The position numbers and the translations under genes were made by a program. Below are positions 4,173-12,506 of a DNA stretch of 64,000 bases, one piece after another. Source of the DNA: Cetobacterium sp. (GTDB lineage: Bacteria > Fusobacteriota > Fusobacteriia > Fusobacteriales > Fusobacteriaceae); assembly GCF_051649505.1 (NCBI RefSeq), contig NZ_JBOFHF010000039.1. One strand, 5' to 3'. Every line of letters begins with the position of its first letter. The first letter of the stretch is position 1. The notes under the pieces are model-generated. The model searched no databases and was not told the DNA's origin. It saw only the letters and a list, made by a program, of their open reading frames with translations.

Positions 4173-7067
4173 TTGGGGGATGCTATGAGATATGAATTTA
4201 TAAGTAATACTAATTTTGAGAGCAATAAAAATTTATATAGATATTTAGAAGAGGGGTTTCAAGATGCAAAGGAGTTTTTCTTTTCAGTTGCATTTATAAA
4301 TTTTGCGGGAGTACAGATACTTTTAGATGTTTTGAAAAAAACAGAAAATTCAGACATTAAAGGTAGAATTTTAACAACAAACTATCTACATTTTACAGAA
4401 CTTAAAGCAGTCCAATACCTAAAAAGATTTAAAAATATAGAAGTGAAATTTTTTGATAGCGATAAGATGGAAGGCTTTCATACAAAGGGATATGTGTTTG
4501 AATATGAAGATAGTTATAAAGCGATAATAGGTTCATCTAATCTCACGAAAAGTGGTCTTAAAAGTAATATAGAGTGGAATACAGGAGTAGTAACTCCTAA
4601 AGGAAGTGAATTTATAACGGGAATATTAAATGAATTCAATTACCTTTGGGAAAAAGCAGTTGAAAATGTAAATCCATATTTAGTTTCATATGTTAAAAAG
4701 CAAGAGAAAGTTGTAAAAAAAGTCCAGAAAAACGAGTATTTAATGGCAGCTGAAGATCATGAGTTTGGAATCTATGACGAATGCGAGATAGAACCTAACT
4801 ATATGCAAAAAGAAGCCTTGAAAAACTTAGAGGATTTAAGGGTTTATAAAGAGAAAAGAGCACTGTGTATAGCGGCTACCGGAACAGGAAAAACATATCT
4901 AGGAGCTTTTGATGTGAGAGCATTTAAAGCTAAACGACTTCTTTTTGTTGTTCATAACGAGGAGATATTAAACTCAGCTATAGCTACTTTTAAAAAGGTT
5001 TTGCCGAATAAAACTATGGGGAAGTTCACAGGAAATTTTAAAAATAGTGATAGAGATTATGTTTTTGCTACAGTTCAAACTTTGAGTTTAAGATACTCTG
5101 AATTTCATGAAAAAGAGTTTGATTACATAATAGTTGATGAGGCTCATCATATAACAGCGAAGAGCTATGAACCTATTTTGAATTACTTTAAACCTCAATT
5201 TTTATTAGGATTAACAGCTACCCCAGAAAGATGTGACGGTGGAAATATATATGAAGTTTTCGATATGAATGTTCCTGTTGAGATACGTTTACAGGAAGCT
5301 TTAGATAAAGAGTTAGTTGTACCATTTCATTATTATGGGATAAAAGATATAGAGGAAGTTGATTTATCAAAGGTAGATTTAAATGATATATCTGCAGTTG
5401 CTAGAATTTTAAATACAGAGAGACGTGTTGATTTTATAATAGAGAAAATGAATTTCTATGGATATAGTGGAGAGAAAAGGAAAACAGTCGGTTTTTGTAT
5501 ATCAGTAGAACATGCAGAGTTTATGGCTAGTCAGTTTGTTCAAAAGGGAATAAAAGCTGTCTCGATTACAGGAACAGATAGTAAGGATACTAGAGATCGA
5601 GTTCTAAAAAGTTTTAGAGAAAGTGATGATTTAGAAGTTATATTTACGGTAAATCTATTCAATGAAGGAGTAGATATCCCGTGTATAAATAGTATTTTAA
5701 TGCTAAGGCCAACAGCTTCACCAATTATTTTTACTCAACAACTTGGAAGAGGTCTTAGACACTCTGAAAATAAAGAGTTTCTAACAGTTATAGATTTCAT
5801 AGGAAATCACTCGAGAGCTTTTTTAATAGCCTTAGCTTTGATTGGTAAAAAAGGCTATGATAAAGAGAGTGTAAAGATAGCGGTAAAAAGAGATTTTGAT
5901 AACTTATCAAAGTTTGTTCATATAAAAATGGATGAGATTTGTAAAGAGGAGATTTTAAAACAGCTCGATAATCAGAATTTTAATAGTTTAAAATATCTGA
6001 AAGAGGAGTACAAAGAGTTTAAAGATATTTTACAAGGTAGAGTCCCAATGCCAATAAATTTTACTCAGTATGAAGAAGCACCAGTTTTCTATAAATACTC
6101 AAAACTTCAAAAATCTTATTTAGATTTTTTGGAGAAAATAAAAGAACCTATTTTTGAAAGAACTGAAAATCAAAAAGTTGTAATAAGAGAGTTTGAAAGA
6201 ATGTTGCCTATAAAAAGAGTTCATGAGTTCGTAATAGCTCACGAGATTATATCAAAAGTTAAGTTACTAAAAGAGGATGAGATAAAAATCTTAGGAAAAT
6301 ATATTGATGTGATATCTTTGAAACATACAAAAGTTACTTTAAACCACGCTAAAGATTTTCTATGTGGAGATTATTCAGATTCTAGTGATTTAAAAAGATG
6401 TGAGCCCTTATTCTTAAGAAAAGGCGACTCTATTGAAATGAGTGAAGTTTTAAAAGAGGTTTTAAAATCTAAAGAGATTAAAGATTACATTCTTCAAATT
6501 TTAGACTATGGACTTTTGAAATATAGTGAAATTTTTGGTAAAAAAGATTATGGATTCCCGTTTTTAAAATTGTATGAAAACTATAATATGAAAGATGTTG
6601 CGTTAATTTGTAACTATGAAAAAAAGCATAGTGCTTTTAGGGGAAGTGGATTATTAACAAATGGTAATGATTATTTTTTATTTGTAGAATTACATAAAGA
6701 TGAGGATATAAAAGAAAGTATAAAATATAATGATAAGATATTGGATAGATATCACTTCCAATGGGAGAGTCCAAACTCAACAAAAGTTGAGAGTGAGAGA
6801 GGACAAAATATAGTTAGAAATAGAGAACGTGGAATAAATTTACATATATTTTTAAGAAAGATTAAAGAGATTGATGGAAAGATTCAGCCATATATCTATA
6901 TTGGAAAAGGTGACACTGTAGATTATAGTGGTGAAAAACCAATTAGAACAAAGTTGAAGTTAGAGAATCCACTTTCAAAAGAGATGTATGTTGAGTTGAC
7001 AGAAAGAGTAGAGCGTTACTTAGAAGTCGCTGAAAAGAAAAAGTTGGAGAATAGGAGAGAGATATGA
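4173..7067 (+). CDS. PLD-nuclease / SF2 helicase / DUF3427 protein, SauUSI-like putative type IV (modification-dependent) restriction enzyme; start may be the ATG at 4185
   Basis: N-terminal FHTKGY...GSSNLT (HxK/GSxN PLD motif), ATGTGKT, DEAHH, TATPER, QQLGRGLR, and a C-terminal Y.D......F.WES DUF3427-type segment. Confidence 0.75.
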   Translation: MGDAMRYEFISNTNFESNKNLYRYLEEGFQDAKEFFFSVAFINFAGVQILLDVLKKTENSDIKGRILTTNYLHFTELKAVQYLKRFKNIEVKFFDSDKMEGFHTKGYVFEYEDSYKAIIGSSNLTKSGLKSNIEWNTGVVTPKGSEFITGILNEFNYLWEKAVENVNPYLVSYVKKQEKVVKKVQKNEYLMAAEDHEFGIYDECEIEPNYMQKEALKNLEDLRVYKEKRALCIAATGTGKTYLGAFDVRAFKAKRLLFVVHNEEILNSAIATFKKVLPNKTMGKFTGNFKNSDRDYVFATVQTLSLRYSEFHEKEFDYIIVDEAHHITAKSYEPILNYFKPQFLLGLTATPERCDGGNIYEVFDMNVPVEIRLQEALDKELVVPFHYYGIKDIEEVDLSKVDLNDISAVARILNTERRVDFIIEKMNFYGYSGEKRKTVGFCISVEHAEFMASQFVQKGIKAVSITGTDSKDTRDRVLKSFRESDDLEVIFTVNLFNEGVDIPCINSILMLRPTASPIIFTQQLGRGLRHSENKEFLTVIDFIGNHSRAFLIALALIGKKGYDKESVKIAVKRDFDNLSKFVHIKMDEICKEEILKQLDNQNFNSLKYLKEEYKEFKDILQGRVPMPINFTQYEEAPVFYKYSKLQKSYLDFLEKIKEPIFERTENQKVVIREFERMLPIKRVHEFVIAHEIISKVKLLKEDEIKILGKYIDVISLKHTKVTLNHAKDFLCGDYSDSSDLKRCEPLFLRKGDSIEMSEVLKEVLKSKEIKDYILQILDYGLLKYSEIFGKKDYGFPFLKLYENYNMKDVALICNYEKKHSAFRGSGLLTNGNDYFLFVELHKDEDIKESIKYNDKILDRYHFQWESPNSTKVESERGQNIVRNRERGINLHIFLRKIKEIDGKIQPYIYIGKGDTVDYSGEKPIRTKLKLENPLSKEMYVELTERVERYLEVAEKKKLENRREI

Positions 7068-7507
7068 AAAAAACTATCTATGTGGTAGGTGCAATTTTAG
7101 AAAATCAGAATGGTGAGATATTTTGTGCTATGAGACCAGAGGATAAGACGTTTCCTGGACTATGGGAGTTTCCTGGCGGTAAGATAGAGGAAGAAGAGGA
7201 CCCGAAAGAGGCTTTGAGAAGAGAGATAGAGGAGGAACTAAATATCTCTATTAAAGTTGGTGAGCTATTCGATGTGGTAGAGAAGGAGTATGAAAAGTTT
7301 ATTATAAATCTAACTACTTATAGTTGTGACATTCTAGATTTTACTAACTTTGAGTTAGTTGAACACCAAGAGTTTAAATGGTTAAAAAGAGAGGAGTTAC
7401 AAAACTTAGAGTGGGTACCAACAGATATTCCTACGTTAGAAAAGTTAGTAAAAAATTCAAAAGAGGCTGTATATAAAAAGTTAAATCAATTGAATTTTAG
7501 AGAATAA
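7064..7507 (+). CDS. NUDIX hydrolase (MutT-like)
   Basis: WEFPGGKIEEEEDPKEALRREIEEEL Nudix box; ATGA overlap with the upstream stop. Confidence 0.9.
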   Translation: MKKTIYVVGAILENQNGEIFCAMRPEDKTFPGLWEFPGGKIEEEEDPKEALRREIEEELNISIKVGELFDVVEKEYEKFIINLTTYSCDILDFTNFELVEHQEFKWLKREELQNLEWVPTDIPTLEKLVKNSKEAVYKKLNQLNFRE

Positions 7508-7535: not shown

Positions 7536-7575
7536 AAAAGCTATAGGGATTTTGATATCCCTATAGCTTTTTCTT
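7536..7575. terminator. Bidirectional terminator
   Basis: AAAAGCTATAGGGAT/ATCCCTATAGCTTTT 15-bp stem between the convergent NUDIX and argH genes. Confidence 0.85.
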
Positions 7576-8989
7576 AAAATATATCGTTTAATCTATAGTT
7601 AATAAGATCTATTTTGGCCCCCGCGATAAATCTATTTAAATCTTCTAGATGAGATAACAAACTATCTTTACTAGGTCCACCTAAGGACTTTCTTTTTTGT
7701 ACACACGTTTTAATAGCTATATTTTCATATATATCCCCGCTAAAAATATATGAAAACTCTTTGTACTTCTCTAAAGAAAGAGTTTCTAGATTTAAATCGT
7801 TTTGAATACAATAGCTCACAATTGCCCCCGTTATTTTGTAAGCCTCTCTAAAACTCATTCCTCTCACAGTCAGATAATCAGCAACATCAGTCGCATTTAT
7901 AAAACCATCATTACATGCTAAAAGTAAAACCTCATCTTTCACTTTTAGAGTTTTAACCATTCCAACAAATACCTGTAAACATCCTTTGACAGTATCTACA
8001 GCATCAAAGAAAGCCTCTTTATCCTCTTGCATATCTTTATTGTATGCCAAAGGAATCCCTTTCATAGTAGTTAAAAGTGCCATCAAATCACCATAAACTC
8101 TACCTGTTTTCCCCCTAACTAGTTCGGCTGCATCTGGATTTTTCTTTTGTGGCATAATGCTGCTTCCTGTTGAGAAAGAGTCACTTAATTCAATATATCC
8201 ATAGTCATTTGAGCTATAGATTATAATTTCCTCTGAGAATCTAGAAAGATGCATCATAATAATAGAAAGTCCTGACATAATCTCAATCAGATAATCTCTG
8301 TCACTAACTCCATCTAAAGAGTTTAAAGTAGGTCCTTTAAAACCTAGAATTGCAGCTGTAAACTCTCTATCTATTGGATAAGTTGTTCCTGCAAGAGCAG
8401 CACTTCCAAGAGGAGAGAAATCCATAAGCTCAGCAGCATTTTCTAGACGCTTGAAGTCTCTTTTAAACATCTCTGAGTATGCAAACATATAGTGTCCAAA
8501 AGATATGGGTTGAGCTTTTTGAAGATGGGTAAACCCAGGCATATATGTTTCAAAGTTTTTCTCTCCAAGCTCTGTTGTAACCTCAATCAACTCTAAAAGA
8601 AATGATTGAATCTTTTTAACTTCATCCTTTGCAAAGAGCCTCATATCAACTGCAACTTGGTCATTTCTACTACGTCCAGTATGTAGCTTTTTTCCAACAT
8701 CCCCTATTCTATCAATTAGAATTTTCTCAATATTCATATGAATATCTTCGTAAGTTGTACAAAACTCAACTTCACCTCTTTCAATACTTTCTAAAATCTC
8801 GATTAAAGTTTTCTCTATAAGCTCTCCATCCTCTTTTGAAATAATCTCCATTTTAGATAGCCCTCTGACATGAGCGATGCTTCCCATAATGTCATATCTA
8901 TATAGTCTTTTATCAAAGTGTATCGACGAGTGAAAATCTAGGATTAAATCACTTGCTGCTTCTTTGAATCTTCCTGAAAAGTACTGCAT
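7574..8989 (-). CDS. argH: Argininosuccinate lyase
   Basis: HTGRSRNDQ, PGFTHLQKAQP and the GSSIMPQKKNPD signature. Confidence 0.97.
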   Translation of the reverse strand: MQYFSGRFKEAASDLILDFHSSIHFDKRLYRYDIMGSIAHVRGLSKMEIISKEDGELIEKTLIEILESIERGEVEFCTTYEDIHMNIEKILIDRIGDVGKKLHTGRSRNDQVAVDMRLFAKDEVKKIQSFLLELIEVTTELGEKNFETYMPGFTHLQKAQPISFGHYMFAYSEMFKRDFKRLENAAELMDFSPLGSAALAGTTYPIDREFTAAILGFKGPTLNSLDGVSDRDYLIEIMSGLSIIMMHLSRFSEEIIIYSSNDYGYIELSDSFSTGSSIMPQKKNPDAAELVRGKTGRVYGDLMALLTTMKGIPLAYNKDMQEDKEAFFDAVDTVKGCLQVFVGMVKTLKVKDEVLLLACNDGFINATDVADYLTVRGMSFREAYKITGAIVSYCIQNDLNLETLSLEKYKEFSYIFSGDIYENIAIKTCVQKRKSLGGPSKDSLLSHLEDLNRFIAGAKIDLINYRLNDIF

Positions 8990-10494
8990 TTTTCATCTCC
9001 CTTAAAACCTTTTTGTGTAATCAGTTTTATACCAATTAAAATTAAAATCTGTGTAATGATAGCAAATACTATTAAGTAGCTATTTTCAGCGAAACCACCT
9101 ATTAAAAACACAGTTATCGCTAAACCTGCATTTATAAGAGCATATGGAGTCTGAGTTTTAACGTGATTTATATGATCACAACCAGCACCAGCAGATGAAA
9201 GAATCGTTGTATCTGAGATTGGAGAAACATGATCTCCAAAAAGTCCGCCTGAAAGAATAGCTCCTATTGTAACGTAAAGCGGAGCGTTAAAAGTCAGAGC
9301 CATAGGAATAACAAGAGGTATCATAATACTAAAAGTTCCCCATGAGCTCCCAGTTGAAAACGAGATTATAGCTCCAAATAAAAATGCTATAGCTGGAATA
9401 AACCCAGAGTTTATATCTATTGATTTTAAGAAACTGATTAGAAATTGGTCAGCTCCTAAATCTTTGTTGATAACTCCTAAAGACCAAGCCAAAATAAGGA
9501 TTATCACAATCTCACTCATCTTTTTCATACCATTAAGATAGATTGAGAATATCTCTTTGAAAGTTTTAGATTTATAAAATAGCATCAGACCCATAAGAAC
9601 TAAAGCAGCATATAGATATCCACTTGTAAGAGCGGCTCTAAAAGCTCCCCCAGAAACTCTAGAAGTTATAAATGAAACTCCTAGCATCGAGAAAAGTGTT
9701 CCTAGAAGAACAAGGATTGGCAACCAAACAAAAGAGCCACGAGCATTTTCAACACGATACTTTGAGTTATCAACTGTCATTTCATTTTCAGCAACCTCGC
9801 TTTCTAAAGAGAGATTATCTTCAAAAGTTTTCATAGGTCCAAAATCTAACTTTAAAAGAGTCAGAGTTGGAATTATAGTTAAAGCTAGCAGTGGATATAT
9901 GTTAAAAGGTATCGATTTTATAAAACTTTCGTAGTCTGAAAGATTCAGATTTAAAAGCTCAAACTCTTTTTGAAGCAATCCAATTATGAAAACTCCCCAT
10001 CCGATAAACGGGACTAAAACCGCGACTGGTGATGAAGTTGAATCTAAAATGAAAGCTAGTTTTTCCTTAGATATTTTCAATCTTTTAAAAAATGGATTGA
10101 AGATAGGTCCTACAATTAGAGGGGTTCCCAAATCAGAGAAAAATATCATAATCCCTGTGAAATATGCAAGAAGCTGAGCTTTTCTCTTTGAGTTGATAGA
10201 GTTTTTAAAACTTTCAGCAAAAGCGTAAGCTCCTCCAGACATCATCATAAGTTCAATAAATCCACCTATAAAAATCATAAGCACAATAACCCCAGCATTG
10301 TAGCTATCTGTAAGCTGATTTATAAAATATTTACCAACTAGAACCTTTGTAGTCTCTAGCGGATTATAGTTATTTAATATAAAAATTCCACAGAATACAC
10401 TGGAAAAAAGTGACAAAACTACGTTTTTAGTTTTGATTGATAAGAAAACTGCAATTAAAATTGGAACGATAGATAAAACCCCGAATGAAACCAT
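8944..10494 (-). CDS. NhaC-family Na+/H+ antiporter / amino-acid transporter
   Basis: Multi-TM protein with EKLAFILDSTSSP, FSTGSSWGTF and GGLFGDHVSPISDTTILSS motifs. Confidence 0.85.
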   Translation of the reverse strand: MVSFGVLSIVPILIAVFLSIKTKNVVLSLFSSVFCGIFILNNYNPLETTKVLVGKYFINQLTDSYNAGVIVLMIFIGGFIELMMMSGGAYAFAESFKNSINSKRKAQLLAYFTGIMIFFSDLGTPLIVGPIFNPFFKRLKISKEKLAFILDSTSSPVAVLVPFIGWGVFIIGLLQKEFELLNLNLSDYESFIKSIPFNIYPLLALTIIPTLTLLKLDFGPMKTFEDNLSLESEVAENEMTVDNSKYRVENARGSFVWLPILVLLGTLFSMLGVSFITSRVSGGAFRAALTSGYLYAALVLMGLMLFYKSKTFKEIFSIYLNGMKKMSEIVIILILAWSLGVINKDLGADQFLISFLKSIDINSGFIPAIAFLFGAIISFSTGSSWGTFSIMIPLVIPMALTFNAPLYVTIGAILSGGLFGDHVSPISDTTILSSAGAGCDHINHVKTQTPYALINAGLAITVFLIGGFAENSYLIVFAIITQILILIGIKLITQKGFKGDEKCSTFQEDSKKQQVI

Positions 10495-10530: not shown

Positions 10531-10561
10531 AAAAGAAAAGGCATACCAAAAATGGTATGCC
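10531..10561 (-). terminator. Intrinsic terminator inside the 5' leader of nhaC-argH (attenuator)
   Basis: Minus-strand GGCATACCA-TTTT-TGGTATGCC followed by TTTTCTTTT, about 37 nt upstream of the nhaC start. Confidence 0.8.
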
Positions 10562-10697
10562 GTAGAGAACTTAACTAAGTTAATAAGCGTATTGTTATGG
10601 CAGCGTCACAATACTTAATTCACAGGATCATAACATCTACGCCGTCGGCCTTAGGCTCCGTATATGGAAGTGAACTAACCTCTATTTTGTTTTATTA
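10562..10697 (-). ncRNA. Candidate cis-regulatory RNA (riboswitch-like leader), family not recognised
   Basis: GC-richer structured leader between a sigma70 promoter and an intrinsic terminator. UAGAGG (10684-10679) can pair with UCUCUA (10568-10563) to close the domain. Confidence 0.55.
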
Positions 10698-10703
10698 GAT
10701 GTG

Positions 10704-10733
10704 AGTATACTATATAATCACTCTAGTTGTCAA
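10704..10733 (-). promoter_or_regulatory. sigma70-type promoter of nhaC-argH
   Basis: TTGACA-N18-TATACT on the minus strand. Confidence 0.7.
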
Positions 10734-10750: not shown

Positions 10751-12250
10751 TTATTGAAGATTGATTAAAACTCCAATAACCATGAAGATTGAACCTAGAA
10801 GGAATAACACTCCTTGGAACTTAATTTGTAACTTTGCCCAAACTCCCCACTCAATTTTAGCAATTCCTAAAATCGCCATCAGAATTCCAGAAGTTGGAAC
10901 GAACATATTTGTAAATCCATCTCCTAGTTGGAAAGCAAGTACAGCAACTTGTCTAGGAACTCCAACTAAGTCAGCTAGAGGCGCCATTATTGGCATCGTA
11001 AGTGCAGCTTGTCCAGATCCAGATACAACAAAGAAGTTGAATGTAGATTGGAAGAAGTACATTGCGATTGCTGATACAGAAGCGTGTAGTTGACTTAGAA
11101 CTCCAGCCACTGAGTTAAGAACAGTGTTTAAAACTGTAGGTGTTCCAGCATCTACTCCACCAAGAACTAAAACAATTCCTTTTGCCATTCCAACAACTAA
11201 AGCAGCTCCGATTAACTCTTCTGCTCCTTTTCTGAAAGATATGGCGATATCATTTACTGTCATATTGTTTAAGTTGAATATAACTCCAATTATTCCAGAG
11301 ATAATACCCATAATTGTGAATTGAGCAGCGATTTCAGGAAGGTAGTAACCATGTAATACAACTCCCCAAACAATCCAAGACATCCCTAAGAATATAGTTA
11401 AGAATACTAATTTATGCCCAAACTTGAATTCTAAATCCTCTGCTTCATCAGCTTTGAAGTCATCTCTAAAGAATTTATCAGTCTCATAAGAGATAGATAA
11501 CTCAGGGTTAGCTTTAACTTTCTTAGCATAGTTCATAGTGTAAACAATTCCAAATGTCGTAAAGAATATCCACATAGCTATTCTAAACATAGCACCAGAA
11601 AGTACAGGAACTCCTGCAACCCCTTGAGCTATAGCCACACTGAATGGATTCATCCAAGAAGTAGCAAAACCAATTTGAGTTGAGATGTAGCACATAAAGA
11701 TTCCAGTGATAGAGTCATATCCCATTCCAACAACGATAGGAATTAAGATCATAGCAAACGGGATAGCTTCCTCTCCCATACCAAATACAGCTCCACCTAA
11801 AGAGAACAGTAGGAACACTAGAGGAATTAATAGTACCTCAGATCCTTTTGTCTTCTTTATCATATTTAGGATTCCAGCTTCAACAGCCTTAGTTTTTAAA
11901 ATAATACCGAAAGCTCCACCTGTAATCAGGATGAAAGCGATAATTCCAACAGCAGTTCCCCACTTATCTCCACTAACAAGACCTTCGAAGATATAGTTAG
12001 TTATACTCATATCTCCACCAGCAGCAAAAATAGGAACACCTTTAATAAGTGGCTTTCCAAGCTCATCTAAAGCATAGGCAAAACTTCCAGGAACAGGAAC
12101 AGTTCTAGTTTTCATACCAGCTTCAGTAGCGTATTGAATTTTTTCCATAGTAAAGCTTCCAACTGGGATAAGATACGTCAGTATAGCAGCAAAAATAACT
12201 ACGAAAAAGATGATGACATAGGTATCAGGTATTCTGATTTTTTTCTTCAT
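10751..12250 (-). CDS. yfcC: YfcC-family putative basic amino acid antiporter
   Basis: IPDTYVIIF N-terminus, GFATSWMNPF, SGSGQAALTMPIMAPLADL and FQLGDG motifs. Confidence 0.8.
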   Translation of the reverse strand: MKKKIRIPDTYVIIFFVVIFAAILTYLIPVGSFTMEKIQYATEAGMKTRTVPVPGSFAYALDELGKPLIKGVPIFAAGGDMSITNYIFEGLVSGDKWGTAVGIIAFILITGGAFGIILKTKAVEAGILNMIKKTKGSEVLLIPLVFLLFSLGGAVFGMGEEAIPFAMILIPIVVGMGYDSITGIFMCYISTQIGFATSWMNPFSVAIAQGVAGVPVLSGAMFRIAMWIFFTTFGIVYTMNYAKKVKANPELSISYETDKFFRDDFKADEAEDLEFKFGHKLVFLTIFLGMSWIVWGVVLHGYYLPEIAAQFTIMGIISGIIGVIFNLNNMTVNDIAISFRKGAEELIGAALVVGMAKGIVLVLGGVDAGTPTVLNTVLNSVAGVLSQLHASVSAIAMYFFQSTFNFFVVSGSGQAALTMPIMAPLADLVGVPRQVAVLAFQLGDGFTNMFVPTSGILMAILGIAKIEWGVWAKLQIKFQGVLFLLGSIFMVIGVLINLQ

Positions 12251-12300
12251 TTTACATTCTCCTTCTAAAAATTATGTATATTTTTTTGTTTTTCTGAGAA

Positions 12301-12330
12301 AGTATACTACAGATTAATGCTAAGTGTCAA
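12301..12330 (-). promoter_or_regulatory. sigma70-type promoter of yfcC
   Basis: TTGACA-N18-TATACT on the minus strand. Confidence 0.65.
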
Positions 12331-12506
12331 TCTAAAAAAGACAGCTTATTGTCCTTTTTTTTAGTATCAAAGTATTTTATTTTAATAAAGTTCTTTTACA
12401 AAGAACAAAAGTACTAAAAAACAGTAAAAAAACTGTTGTATTTTAATTTTTTATATGTTATTATCTTTAAAAATAAAAAATAATTTTCAAAAGGACGGTG
12501 ATAATT

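Follow-up and report, generated by a model that had tools for sequence, protein, structure and literature searches.

The leader of the nhaC-argH genes in a Cetobacterium sp. genome (assembly GCF_051649505.1) was analyzed on the minus strand of a 64,000-nt stretch of contig NZ_JBOFHF010000039.1, hereafter the window, and was found to contain a 122-nt RNA domain that recurs upstream of transporter and arginine-related genes in Cetobacterium and allied Fusobacteriaceae. This domain is almost certainly a real, conserved cis-regulatory RNA. We read it as a metabolite-sensing riboswitch that controls transcription termination, a reading to which we give a probability of about 0.6. In kind it belongs with the riboswitch-like transcription attenuators that are already known; as a class it is new. 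A first-pass annotation, made from the letters of the window, had proposed a riboswitch-like leader at this place, and all of the sequence features that it listed lie on the minus strand at the coordinates it gave. The existence of a multi-copy family with a defined regulon was overlooked in that single-locus note, as was the fact that the commonest target of the family is a YjiH-type membrane protein rather than nhaC.

Structure and covariation of the leader RNA

A covariance model (R1) was generated from an alignment of 22 copies (A1), and its matches were re-aligned to give two larger alignments, A2 and A3, containing 35 and 47 distinct sequences, respectively. The annotation had described a P1-like helix closing the domain at the foot of the terminator, and this helix is both present in the window and conserved across the family. 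The elements of the window copy are as follows.

10684-10563, minus strand: whole conserved domain, a putative aptamer of 122 nt, four-way junction closed by P1
10684-10679 (UAGAGG) with 10568-10563 (UCUCUA), minus strand: P1
10678-10676 (UUA), 10617-10615 (UAA), 10588 (G) and 10569 (U), minus strand: junctions
10675-10618, minus strand: P2 arm
10675-10670 (GUUCAC) with 10623-10618 (GUGAAU), minus strand: P2
UUC on one side, AUCCU on the other, minus strand: internal loop of the P2 arm
10666-10663 plus 10661-10660 (CAUA-AC) with 10634-10629 (GU-UAUG), minus strand: P2a
10659-10635, minus strand: apical region of the P2 arm
10659-10641, minus strand: near-invariant apical segment GGAGCCUAAGGCCGACGGC, family consensus GAGCCUAAGGCYGA-N-GGC
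10614-10608 (GUAUUGU) with 10595-10589 (ACAAUAC), minus strand: P3 hairpin
10604-10596, minus strand: near-invariant GCUGCCAUA, within the 12-nt P3 loop GACGCUGCCAUA
10587-10584 (CUUA) with 10573-10570 (UAAG), minus strand: P4 hairpin, AU-rich loop of varying length

The helices of the family consensus are P1 AGAGG/UCUCU, P2 GUUCAC/GUGAAU, P2a CAUA-AC/GU-UAUG, P3 GUAUUGU/ACAAUAC and P4 CUUA/UAAG. In the window copy 29 of 29 consensus pairs are canonical, and the copy scores 146 bits against R1 (E = 1.4e-26); RNAfold alone gives the four-way junction for several single copies. Two segments change in few or none of the sequences: the 14-nt GAGCCUAAGGCYGA, which lies at the end of the P2 arm, and the 9-nt GCUGCCAUA of the P3 loop. 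The apical segment, whose columns show this near-invariance in all three alignments (A1, A2 and A3), is a candidate ligand pocket or tertiary-contact element, and its internal pairing lies beyond the reach of covariation because its columns do not vary.

Pairing in A3 was compared with 500 shuffles and with alignments in which the 3' partners were slid by 1-3 columns. As many as 95.0% of the cells were paired, compared to 82.3% in the shuffles and 29-48% with slid partners, and double changes were found at 22 of the 28 pairs (184 cells against 51.5 expected among the 47 distinct sequences), counts that include inherited changes since the sequences come from a narrow clade. None of the 500 shuffles matched the pairing and double-change values of A3. 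P3 was paired in 100% of the 47 sequences with double changes at five of its seven pairs (for example GU/AC to AC/GU), P2 was 98.5% paired with double changes at four of six pairs, P2a was 95.7% paired with double changes at all six, and P4 was 94.5% paired with compensatory variants at all four. P1 is the weakest helix (83% paired over five pairs) and also shows compensatory variants; in its core, four pairs are 90-98% paired and three of them have such variants, and in one further copy in this genome (copy D, below) the sequence of P1 is wholly different with the pairing kept. Conservation and covariation, which the annotation had named as a check on its proposal, were thus both found. The combination by which riboswitches are generally recognized, a covarying structure together with highly conserved unpaired nucleotides, is present in these alignments.

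An 11-bp helix (10641-10629 with 10599-10588) had also been described in the window copy, competing with GUAUUGU/ACAAUAC (10614-10608 with 10595-10589). Both pairings are present as written, but only the second is part of the family structure. As a candidate conserved element the 11-bp helix was rejected, being 69.4% paired across the copies versus 68.8% in the shuffles and showing no covariation, and GUUAUG, which had been assigned to one of its strands, instead pairs with CAUAUAC to form P2a. For the window copy the folding energies are -25.7 kcal/mol with the 11-bp helix and -24.3 kcal/mol for the consensus fold, and because the two are so close a single sequence could not decide between the folds.

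Copies, distribution and downstream genes

This genome contains four paralogous copies of the domain, which share 76-84% identity and match the model with E = 1e-17 to 1e-26.

Copy A, the window locus: nhaC-argH downstream
Copy B, contig C13, 1442-1570: 361-aa AstE/AspA-family protein with a signal peptide downstream
Copy C, contig C36, 18222-18342: YjiH-type 'Gate' membrane protein downstream
Copy D, contig C39, 49145-49276: second YjiH paralog downstream, then a polar-amino-acid ABC transporter

Each of the four has its own promoter-like hexamer pair at an equal distance from the motif. The 120-nt core is conserved; the terminator of copy B is nearly identical to that of the window copy, and those of copies C and D differ from it in sequence. 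A conserved core with differing terminators is the pattern that would be expected of an aptamer with a freely evolving expression platform.

A DNA search of related genomes showed that the leader occurs several times per genome. Using R1, the motif was found in 31 of 151 Fusobacteriota genomes, in four genera of a single family (16 of 17, 8 of 14, 4 of 8 and 2 of 2 genomes), with 1-5 copies per carrier genome, and was found in none of 45 genomes of the sister family and none of 20 genomes of the largest genus of the same family, which we take to be Fusobacterium proper. An exact-pattern scan of 185,579 species representatives (one genome per species) returned 50 stretches, of which 49 are true and all come from Cetobacterium or allied Fusobacteriaceae: Cetobacterium itself (including C. 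somerae), 'Fusobacterium' perfoetens, 'Fusobacterium' sp. SB021, 'Fusobacterium' sp. MFO224 and uncultured Fusobacteriaceae. The 50th, in a Ruminococcus metagenome-assembled genome (MAG), lies within a coding sequence and is not recognized by the model, and was set aside as a chance match (locus L109). Scanning metagenomes added 42 true matches with the same operon types, several from records named as fish-gut or human-gut samples, and in total more than 100 model matches were obtained in relatives and metagenomes. Fusobacteriota, the phylum in which the annotation had suggested collecting related leaders, is thus the right one, and the named matches place the host of the window in Cetobacterium.

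The annotation had left the leader unassigned to any class, and Rfam 15 bore this out, giving 0 matches over the 64-kb window at the gathering score, with the lysine, T-box, TPP, FMN, purine, glycine, glutamine, c-di-GMP and guanidine classes among those covered. When three divergent copies were scanned at E up to 10, only unrelated low-score noise was returned, with no recurring family. As a positive control, RF00168 detected the two lysine riboswitches of this genome at 119 and 107 bits. In a full-text search of the literature, neither a published account of the motif nor a bacterial arginine riboswitch with validation was found; judged by Rfam 15 and by the literature open to search, the element is therefore new. 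The motif resembles the ligand-orphan candidates of the Breaker laboratory (PMC8632094, PMC11109978, PMC5737381) in being a conserved, structured 5' leader with a terminator and coherent downstream genes; no motif described in the accessible text of those papers agrees with it in associated genes or in hosts. PMC8632094 included F. nucleatum among the genomes scanned and lists two unnamed motifs from it, HRC-7-1 and HRC-7-2, with their details outside the accessible text. As far as that text goes, identity of either with the present motif is unlikely, because the motif is absent from that large genus (presumed Fusobacterium).

Wherever the downstream gene could be read, the copy lies upstream of it in the same orientation, and the downstream open reading frames (ORFs) belong to five families tied to basic-amino-acid uptake or arginine. 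A position in the 5' untranslated region, in sense orientation and ahead of a coherent set of genes, as is typical of riboswitches, was thus found. We tallied the first genes behind 66 R1 matches in genome collections. The YjiH/Gate family is the first gene in 35 of the 66 and does so in all four genera. A member of the AstE/AspA family with a signal peptide is first in 12, the nearest solved relatives of this protein being N-acetyl-diaminobutyrate deacetylases. NhaC is first in 10, with argH visibly next in seven of them, and in one related species (locus L008) the motif stands directly before argH with no nhaC between. In copy D, the best match of the ABC transporter binding protein is the lysine/arginine/ornithine subfamily. 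YfcC is first in four, whose copies, from other Cetobacterium species, are degenerate: P2a, the core, P3, P4 and the terminator are kept, with a promoter-like sequence in place of P1 and P2.

L067:7028-7150: degenerate copy before yfcC
L085:6500-6622: degenerate copy before yfcC
L106:494-616: degenerate copy before yfcC
L103:3407-3522: degenerate copy before yfcC

A few loci carry further genes near the motif. In two Cetobacterium MAGs (L105:7701-7826 and L123:5477-5602), a 230-aa putative regulator begins within 150 nt past the YjiH gene, and a four-subunit 2-oxoacid:ferredoxin oxidoreductase is encoded there as well, both being named from the starts of the sequences alone. In a metagenomic locus (L174:945-1068), the next ORF past the motif is at least 323 aa long, matches no usual downstream family and runs off the end of the locus. 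From the start of its sequence it looks like a TnpB-type, transposon-associated gene, which suggests a recent insertion between leader and gene.

Termination, ligand and competing explanations

The strong terminator that had been reported ahead of the ribosome-binding site was recovered, as 1 such site in the region against 0.1 expected from shuffles. Its arms, GGCATACCA/TGGTATGCC, form 9 bp with five G-C pairs and are followed by TTTTCTTTT. The features between P1 and the start codon are these.

10561-10540, minus strand: intrinsic terminator stem GGCAUACCA/UGGUAUGCC, starting 1 nt past P1
10539-10531, minus strand: terminator U-tract UUUUCUUUU
10524-10510, minus strand: second conserved hairpin, GUAUUUU..AAAAUAC, directly abutting the Shine-Dalgarno (SD) sequence
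10509-10504, minus strand: SD AGGAGG, with the ATG start codon at 10494-10492

In nearly all of the approximately 50 distinct full leaders that were folded, a terminator hairpin and U-tract stand directly 3' of the motif and the SD follows the terminator; in a few YfcC-type copies the terminator lies further downstream. A hairpin matching the one before the SD (CAGAAAUUU..AAAUUUCUG followed by GAGG) is found in YjiH-type leaders of other genera, and equivalents stand in L032, L023, L053, L022 and other loci. In the YjiH-type leaders UUGGCAG stands directly after the U-tract. The 3' strand of this hairpin abuts or overlaps the SD, and its 5' flank UUGGCAG complements CUGCCA of the P3 loop. The complementarity of CUGCCA to the conserved UUGGCAG past the U-tract is not significant: it occurs in 18 of 50 leaders, but shuffled loops reached that figure in 17 of 200 trials.

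In the search for an antiterminator, transcripts ending at the terminator loop were folded, duplex searches were run and pairing probabilities were averaged over 49 leaders. The 5' half of the terminator, (A)GGCAUAC, varies unusually little. One possible partner for it is UACGCUU, a stretch running from the last part of P3 through J3/4 into the first part of P4; every copy allows 5-7 of the 7 pairs there, mostly with a C-A mismatch. The other is UGCC of the P3 loop. Both pairings are weak, with a mean predicted probability of about 0.1. Compensatory changes in the L023, L051 and g9 copies, which might have been taken as antiterminator support, are explained by covariation within P3 or the terminator. 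The antiterminator that the annotation had suggested, GCCG..GUAGA with UCUACGGC, did not hold up, since GUAGA is confined to the copy of this species, the other copies have GAUGA, and no covariation was seen. The P1 3' strand UUCUCU is anti-SD-like, and in the RNAfold predictions for many full-length leaders it is base-paired to the SD.

In the riboswitch reading, the RNA would be made from its own promoter and fold during transcription, and the binding of a small molecule would set the choice between termination, at the hairpin 1 nt downstream, and read-through into nhaC-argH. When arginine or a close basic amino-acid metabolite is plentiful, uptake, scavenging and the last biosynthetic step would be shut off, and the RNA switch would stand in for the ArgR repressor. 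Mutation of GCUGCCAUA and of GAGCCUAAGG would be expected to have an effect. The family, its structure, its position, the terminators and the regulon are established parts of this reading; that a ligand binds, what it is and that it acts in the OFF direction we infer. Ligand-promoted termination is about an even call, to which we committed because of the gene logic and the candidate antiterminator in J3/4.

An arginine-related ligand, which the annotation had proposed from the controlled genes, is a reasonable guess. The genome has argG and argH and its sole carbamoyltransferase is PyrB; therefore, arginine could come only from citrulline or uptake. Lysine in this genome is served by the pair of RF00168 elements that scored 119 and 107 bits.

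Contig C27, 34892-35066, plus strand: lysine riboswitch before aspartate kinase (lysC), directly after argG
Contig C35, 52590-52763, plus strand: lysine riboswitch before a different NhaC-family paralog

The NhaC of the window is thus a different paralog from the one under lysine riboswitch control. Since lysine is already under canonical riboswitches and the motif has an arginine gene context, arginine or a close metabolic relative would be the most economical ligand, and arginine itself is put forward tentatively. ArgR (PF01316) was not found in this genome and reaches the cut-off in 1 of 151 Fusobacteriota genomes. Should arginine prove to be the ligand, the motif would share with the ArgR/ARG-box system the end-product control of arginine uptake and argH, with the difference that ArgR is a protein acting on DNA and the motif is an RNA. 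Phyletic complementarity with ArgR was discarded as an argument: ArgR is missing phylum-wide, beyond the motif genera too, which fits the arginine idea and does not discriminate. Most of the phylum that lacks ArgR also lacks this RNA motif.

Several observations weigh against the riboswitch reading or parts of it. The search above found no convincing antiterminator, which leaves gene logic as the ground on which the OFF direction is guessed. YfcC-type antiporters and an AstE-like deacylase fit a substrate-induced (ON) system too, and invariant loops are equally expected of a protein-binding site. To our knowledge, YjiH, the commonest target, has no known substrate; distant YjiH homologues, retrieved by a close-homologue and representative search and viewed in four contexts, had no Rfam element and no motif upstream, the sole lead being one homologue elsewhere that is flanked by ABC transporter genes and an M20 amidohydrolase gene. 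In addition, argG is not behind the motif and forms a separate operon with its own leader, and the inherited changes within the covariation counts belong on this side as well.

Some of these observations lead to an ON switch with a different ligand, in which imported citrulline, an N-acylated basic amino acid, a dipeptide or ornithine would induce uptake (YjiH, NhaC, YfcC, ABC), periplasmic deacylation (AstE-like) and conversion (ArgH). Such a switch would account for the lack of a real antiterminator, with the terminator as a strong, self-contained default hairpin. It would also make use of the P1 3' strand, which pairs with the SD in many leaders, so that P1 formation would free the SD; the near-invariant P3 loop can pair with GGCA in the terminator 5' half, and the YjiH homologue with ABC transporter and M20 amidohydrolase neighbours has a catabolic or salvage-like layout. 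However, the P3 loop and the terminator share a pairing of 4 bp that lacks significance, P1 stands clear of the terminator, unlike in typical ON riboswitches, argG, which is needed for citrulline use, lies outside the regulon, and ArgH as the lone enzyme of central metabolism is better explained by end-product repression, so we consider an ON switch unlikely. An improbable alternative is a binding site for a trans-acting factor carrying the metabolic signal, such as a TRAP-, PyrR-, HutP- or ANTAR-like protein or an uncharged tRNA. The two invariant stretches of single strand, 14 and 9 nt long, suit recognition by a protein, no alternative RNA pairing accounts for the switch, and a family confined to a narrow clade is often seen with lineage-specific protein/RNA pairs. 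Yet four-way junctions of this size (120 nt), in which the stems covary and the junctions are conserved, are typical of metabolite aptamers, whereas TRAP, PyrR, HutP, PRD and ANTAR proteins bind short repeats or single hairpins, which are far simpler, and no regulator gene is consistently linked to the copies. As for tRNA, T-box leaders fill the same regulatory role and work through a terminator, but the motif is far shorter (122 nt), no T-box model matched, and the typical T-box conserved sequences were not seen in the motif alignment. T-boxes do precede amino-acid transporters, including those of the NhaC family (PMC2494555).

It is very improbable that the element is a diverged lysine or SAM-I variant missed by the Rfam models. 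Like the lysine riboswitch (L-box, RF00168), it is an amino-acid-related leader in a low-GC anaerobe, with a multi-helix junction and then an intrinsic terminator; it starts with AGAGG, as lysine leaders also do, and it controls an NhaC paralog, as a lysine riboswitch does in this genome. With SAM-I (the S-box) it shares a P1-closed four-way junction with a terminator directly downstream. The true lysine riboswitches here nevertheless score 107-119 bits, and the three divergent copies gave no riboswitch family at E up to 10. The lysine riboswitch has five helices in about 180 nt, other invariant nucleotides, no covariance-model similarity to the motif and a lysC/dap regulon, as opposed to four helices in about 120 nt ahead of argH and basic-amino-acid transporters. 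SAM-I, which we expect to be among the Rfam models that went unmatched in the whole window and in the three permissive copy scans, has an unrelated conserved core and a P1/antiterminator overlap of which the motif has no clear counterpart. No lys/dap genes and no met, SAM or other sulfur genes were found in the regulon, and the invariant segments match no class hallmark that we know of. A non-regulatory repeat or small-RNA gene lying upstream of genes by chance is hardly credible. The motif is multi-copy and has its own promoter and terminator, so that it probably gives rise to a short transcript of about 165 nt; against this, more than 100 instances in four genera stand in sense orientation just ahead of an ORF that has an SD, a small and constant set of gene families follows throughout, and neither the terminal inverted repeats nor the target-site features of a mobile element are present.

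The riboswitch reading would matter chiefly through its ligand. Riboswitches for protein amino acids are known in nature for lysine, glycine and glutamine only (PMC5584792), and the sole claim of an arginine riboswitch, a fungal one, is dismissed by McCown et al. 2017 (PMC5473149). In its fullest form, the proposal would be a first natural arginine-sensing riboswitch class, with a four-way-junction aptamer replacing ArgR in Cetobacterium and allied Fusobacteriaceae, and with the YjiH-type 'Gate', the Tet(35)-like NhaC paralog and the periplasmic AstE-like hydrolase taking part in arginine acquisition; that all of this holds jointly is doubtful. What is at hand is a well-supported, putative orphan aptamer whose regulon has argH and basic-amino-acid transporters at its centre and whose host phylum lacks ArgR, and the existence of an arginine riboswitch could therefore be tested directly with one 122-nt RNA. 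Any ligand would give a first functional handle on the YjiH-family membrane proteins, which are widespread and uncharacterized, and Cetobacterium, a fish-gut genus that is dominant and of nutritional importance, would gain a regulatory tool. The general reach is limited by the narrow host range.

The nhaC-argH locus, its neighbours and the argG leader

The remaining features of the locus lie on the same strand as the leader.

10733-10704, minus strand: sigma-70-type promoter, -35 TTGACA at 10733-10728, 18-nt spacer, -10 TATACT at 10709-10704
10751-12250, minus strand: yfcC (YfcC/DcuC family), 739 bits to the 'putative basic amino acid antiporter YfcC' model
8944-10494, minus strand: NhaC-family membrane transporter gene, 516 aa, Pfam PF03553, E = 1.6e-54
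7574-8989, minus strand: argH, argininosuccinate lyase, TIGR00838 equivalog, 594 bits against a cut-off of 279.5

The promoter agrees with the consensus at 11 of 12 positions, as near to it as had been claimed, and transcription would start near 10697, approximately 13 nt 5' of P1. The spacer between yfcC and nhaC is 256 nt and contains the promoter, the leader and the terminator, in keeping with the earlier placement of the leader between promoter and terminator ahead of nhaC-argH, and the reading frame of argH overlaps the end of nhaC. The leader is also GC-richer than its flanks, as described: the 122-nt domain has 40% GC and its core 48%, compared to 18-28% in the flanks and 30% in the genome. 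The NhaC protein of the window has weak matches to the Tet(35) and ArcD arginine/ornithine antiporter models. The region 5' of the window's yfcC (12251-12470) contains no motif copy or remnant, and a plain promoter stands there alone (12331-12300).

The argG operon of this genome has a leader of a different make (L077:480-730, corresponding to about 32640-32890 of contig C27 of G000), followed by the gene for a lysine/arginine/ornithine-type binding protein (L077:768-1481) and by argG (L077:1492-2694). This leader contains a promoter-like TTGACA..TATTAT, an SD and an ORF of about 35 codons that starts ATGACTATGAAAAGGATTTTAAGG and has two AGG arginine codons, and next a terminator-like hairpin, GAGCCAGTG..CACTGG, and eight T. 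It may be a leader-peptide attenuator for arginine, distinct from the motif.

On the plus strand of the window, a 964-aa protein (4173-7067) combines a PLD-like nuclease domain, a ResIII/helicase core and DUF3427, and its gene is overlapped by 4 nt by that of a NUDIX hydrolase (7064-7507). The pair converges on argH and looks defence-like in architecture.

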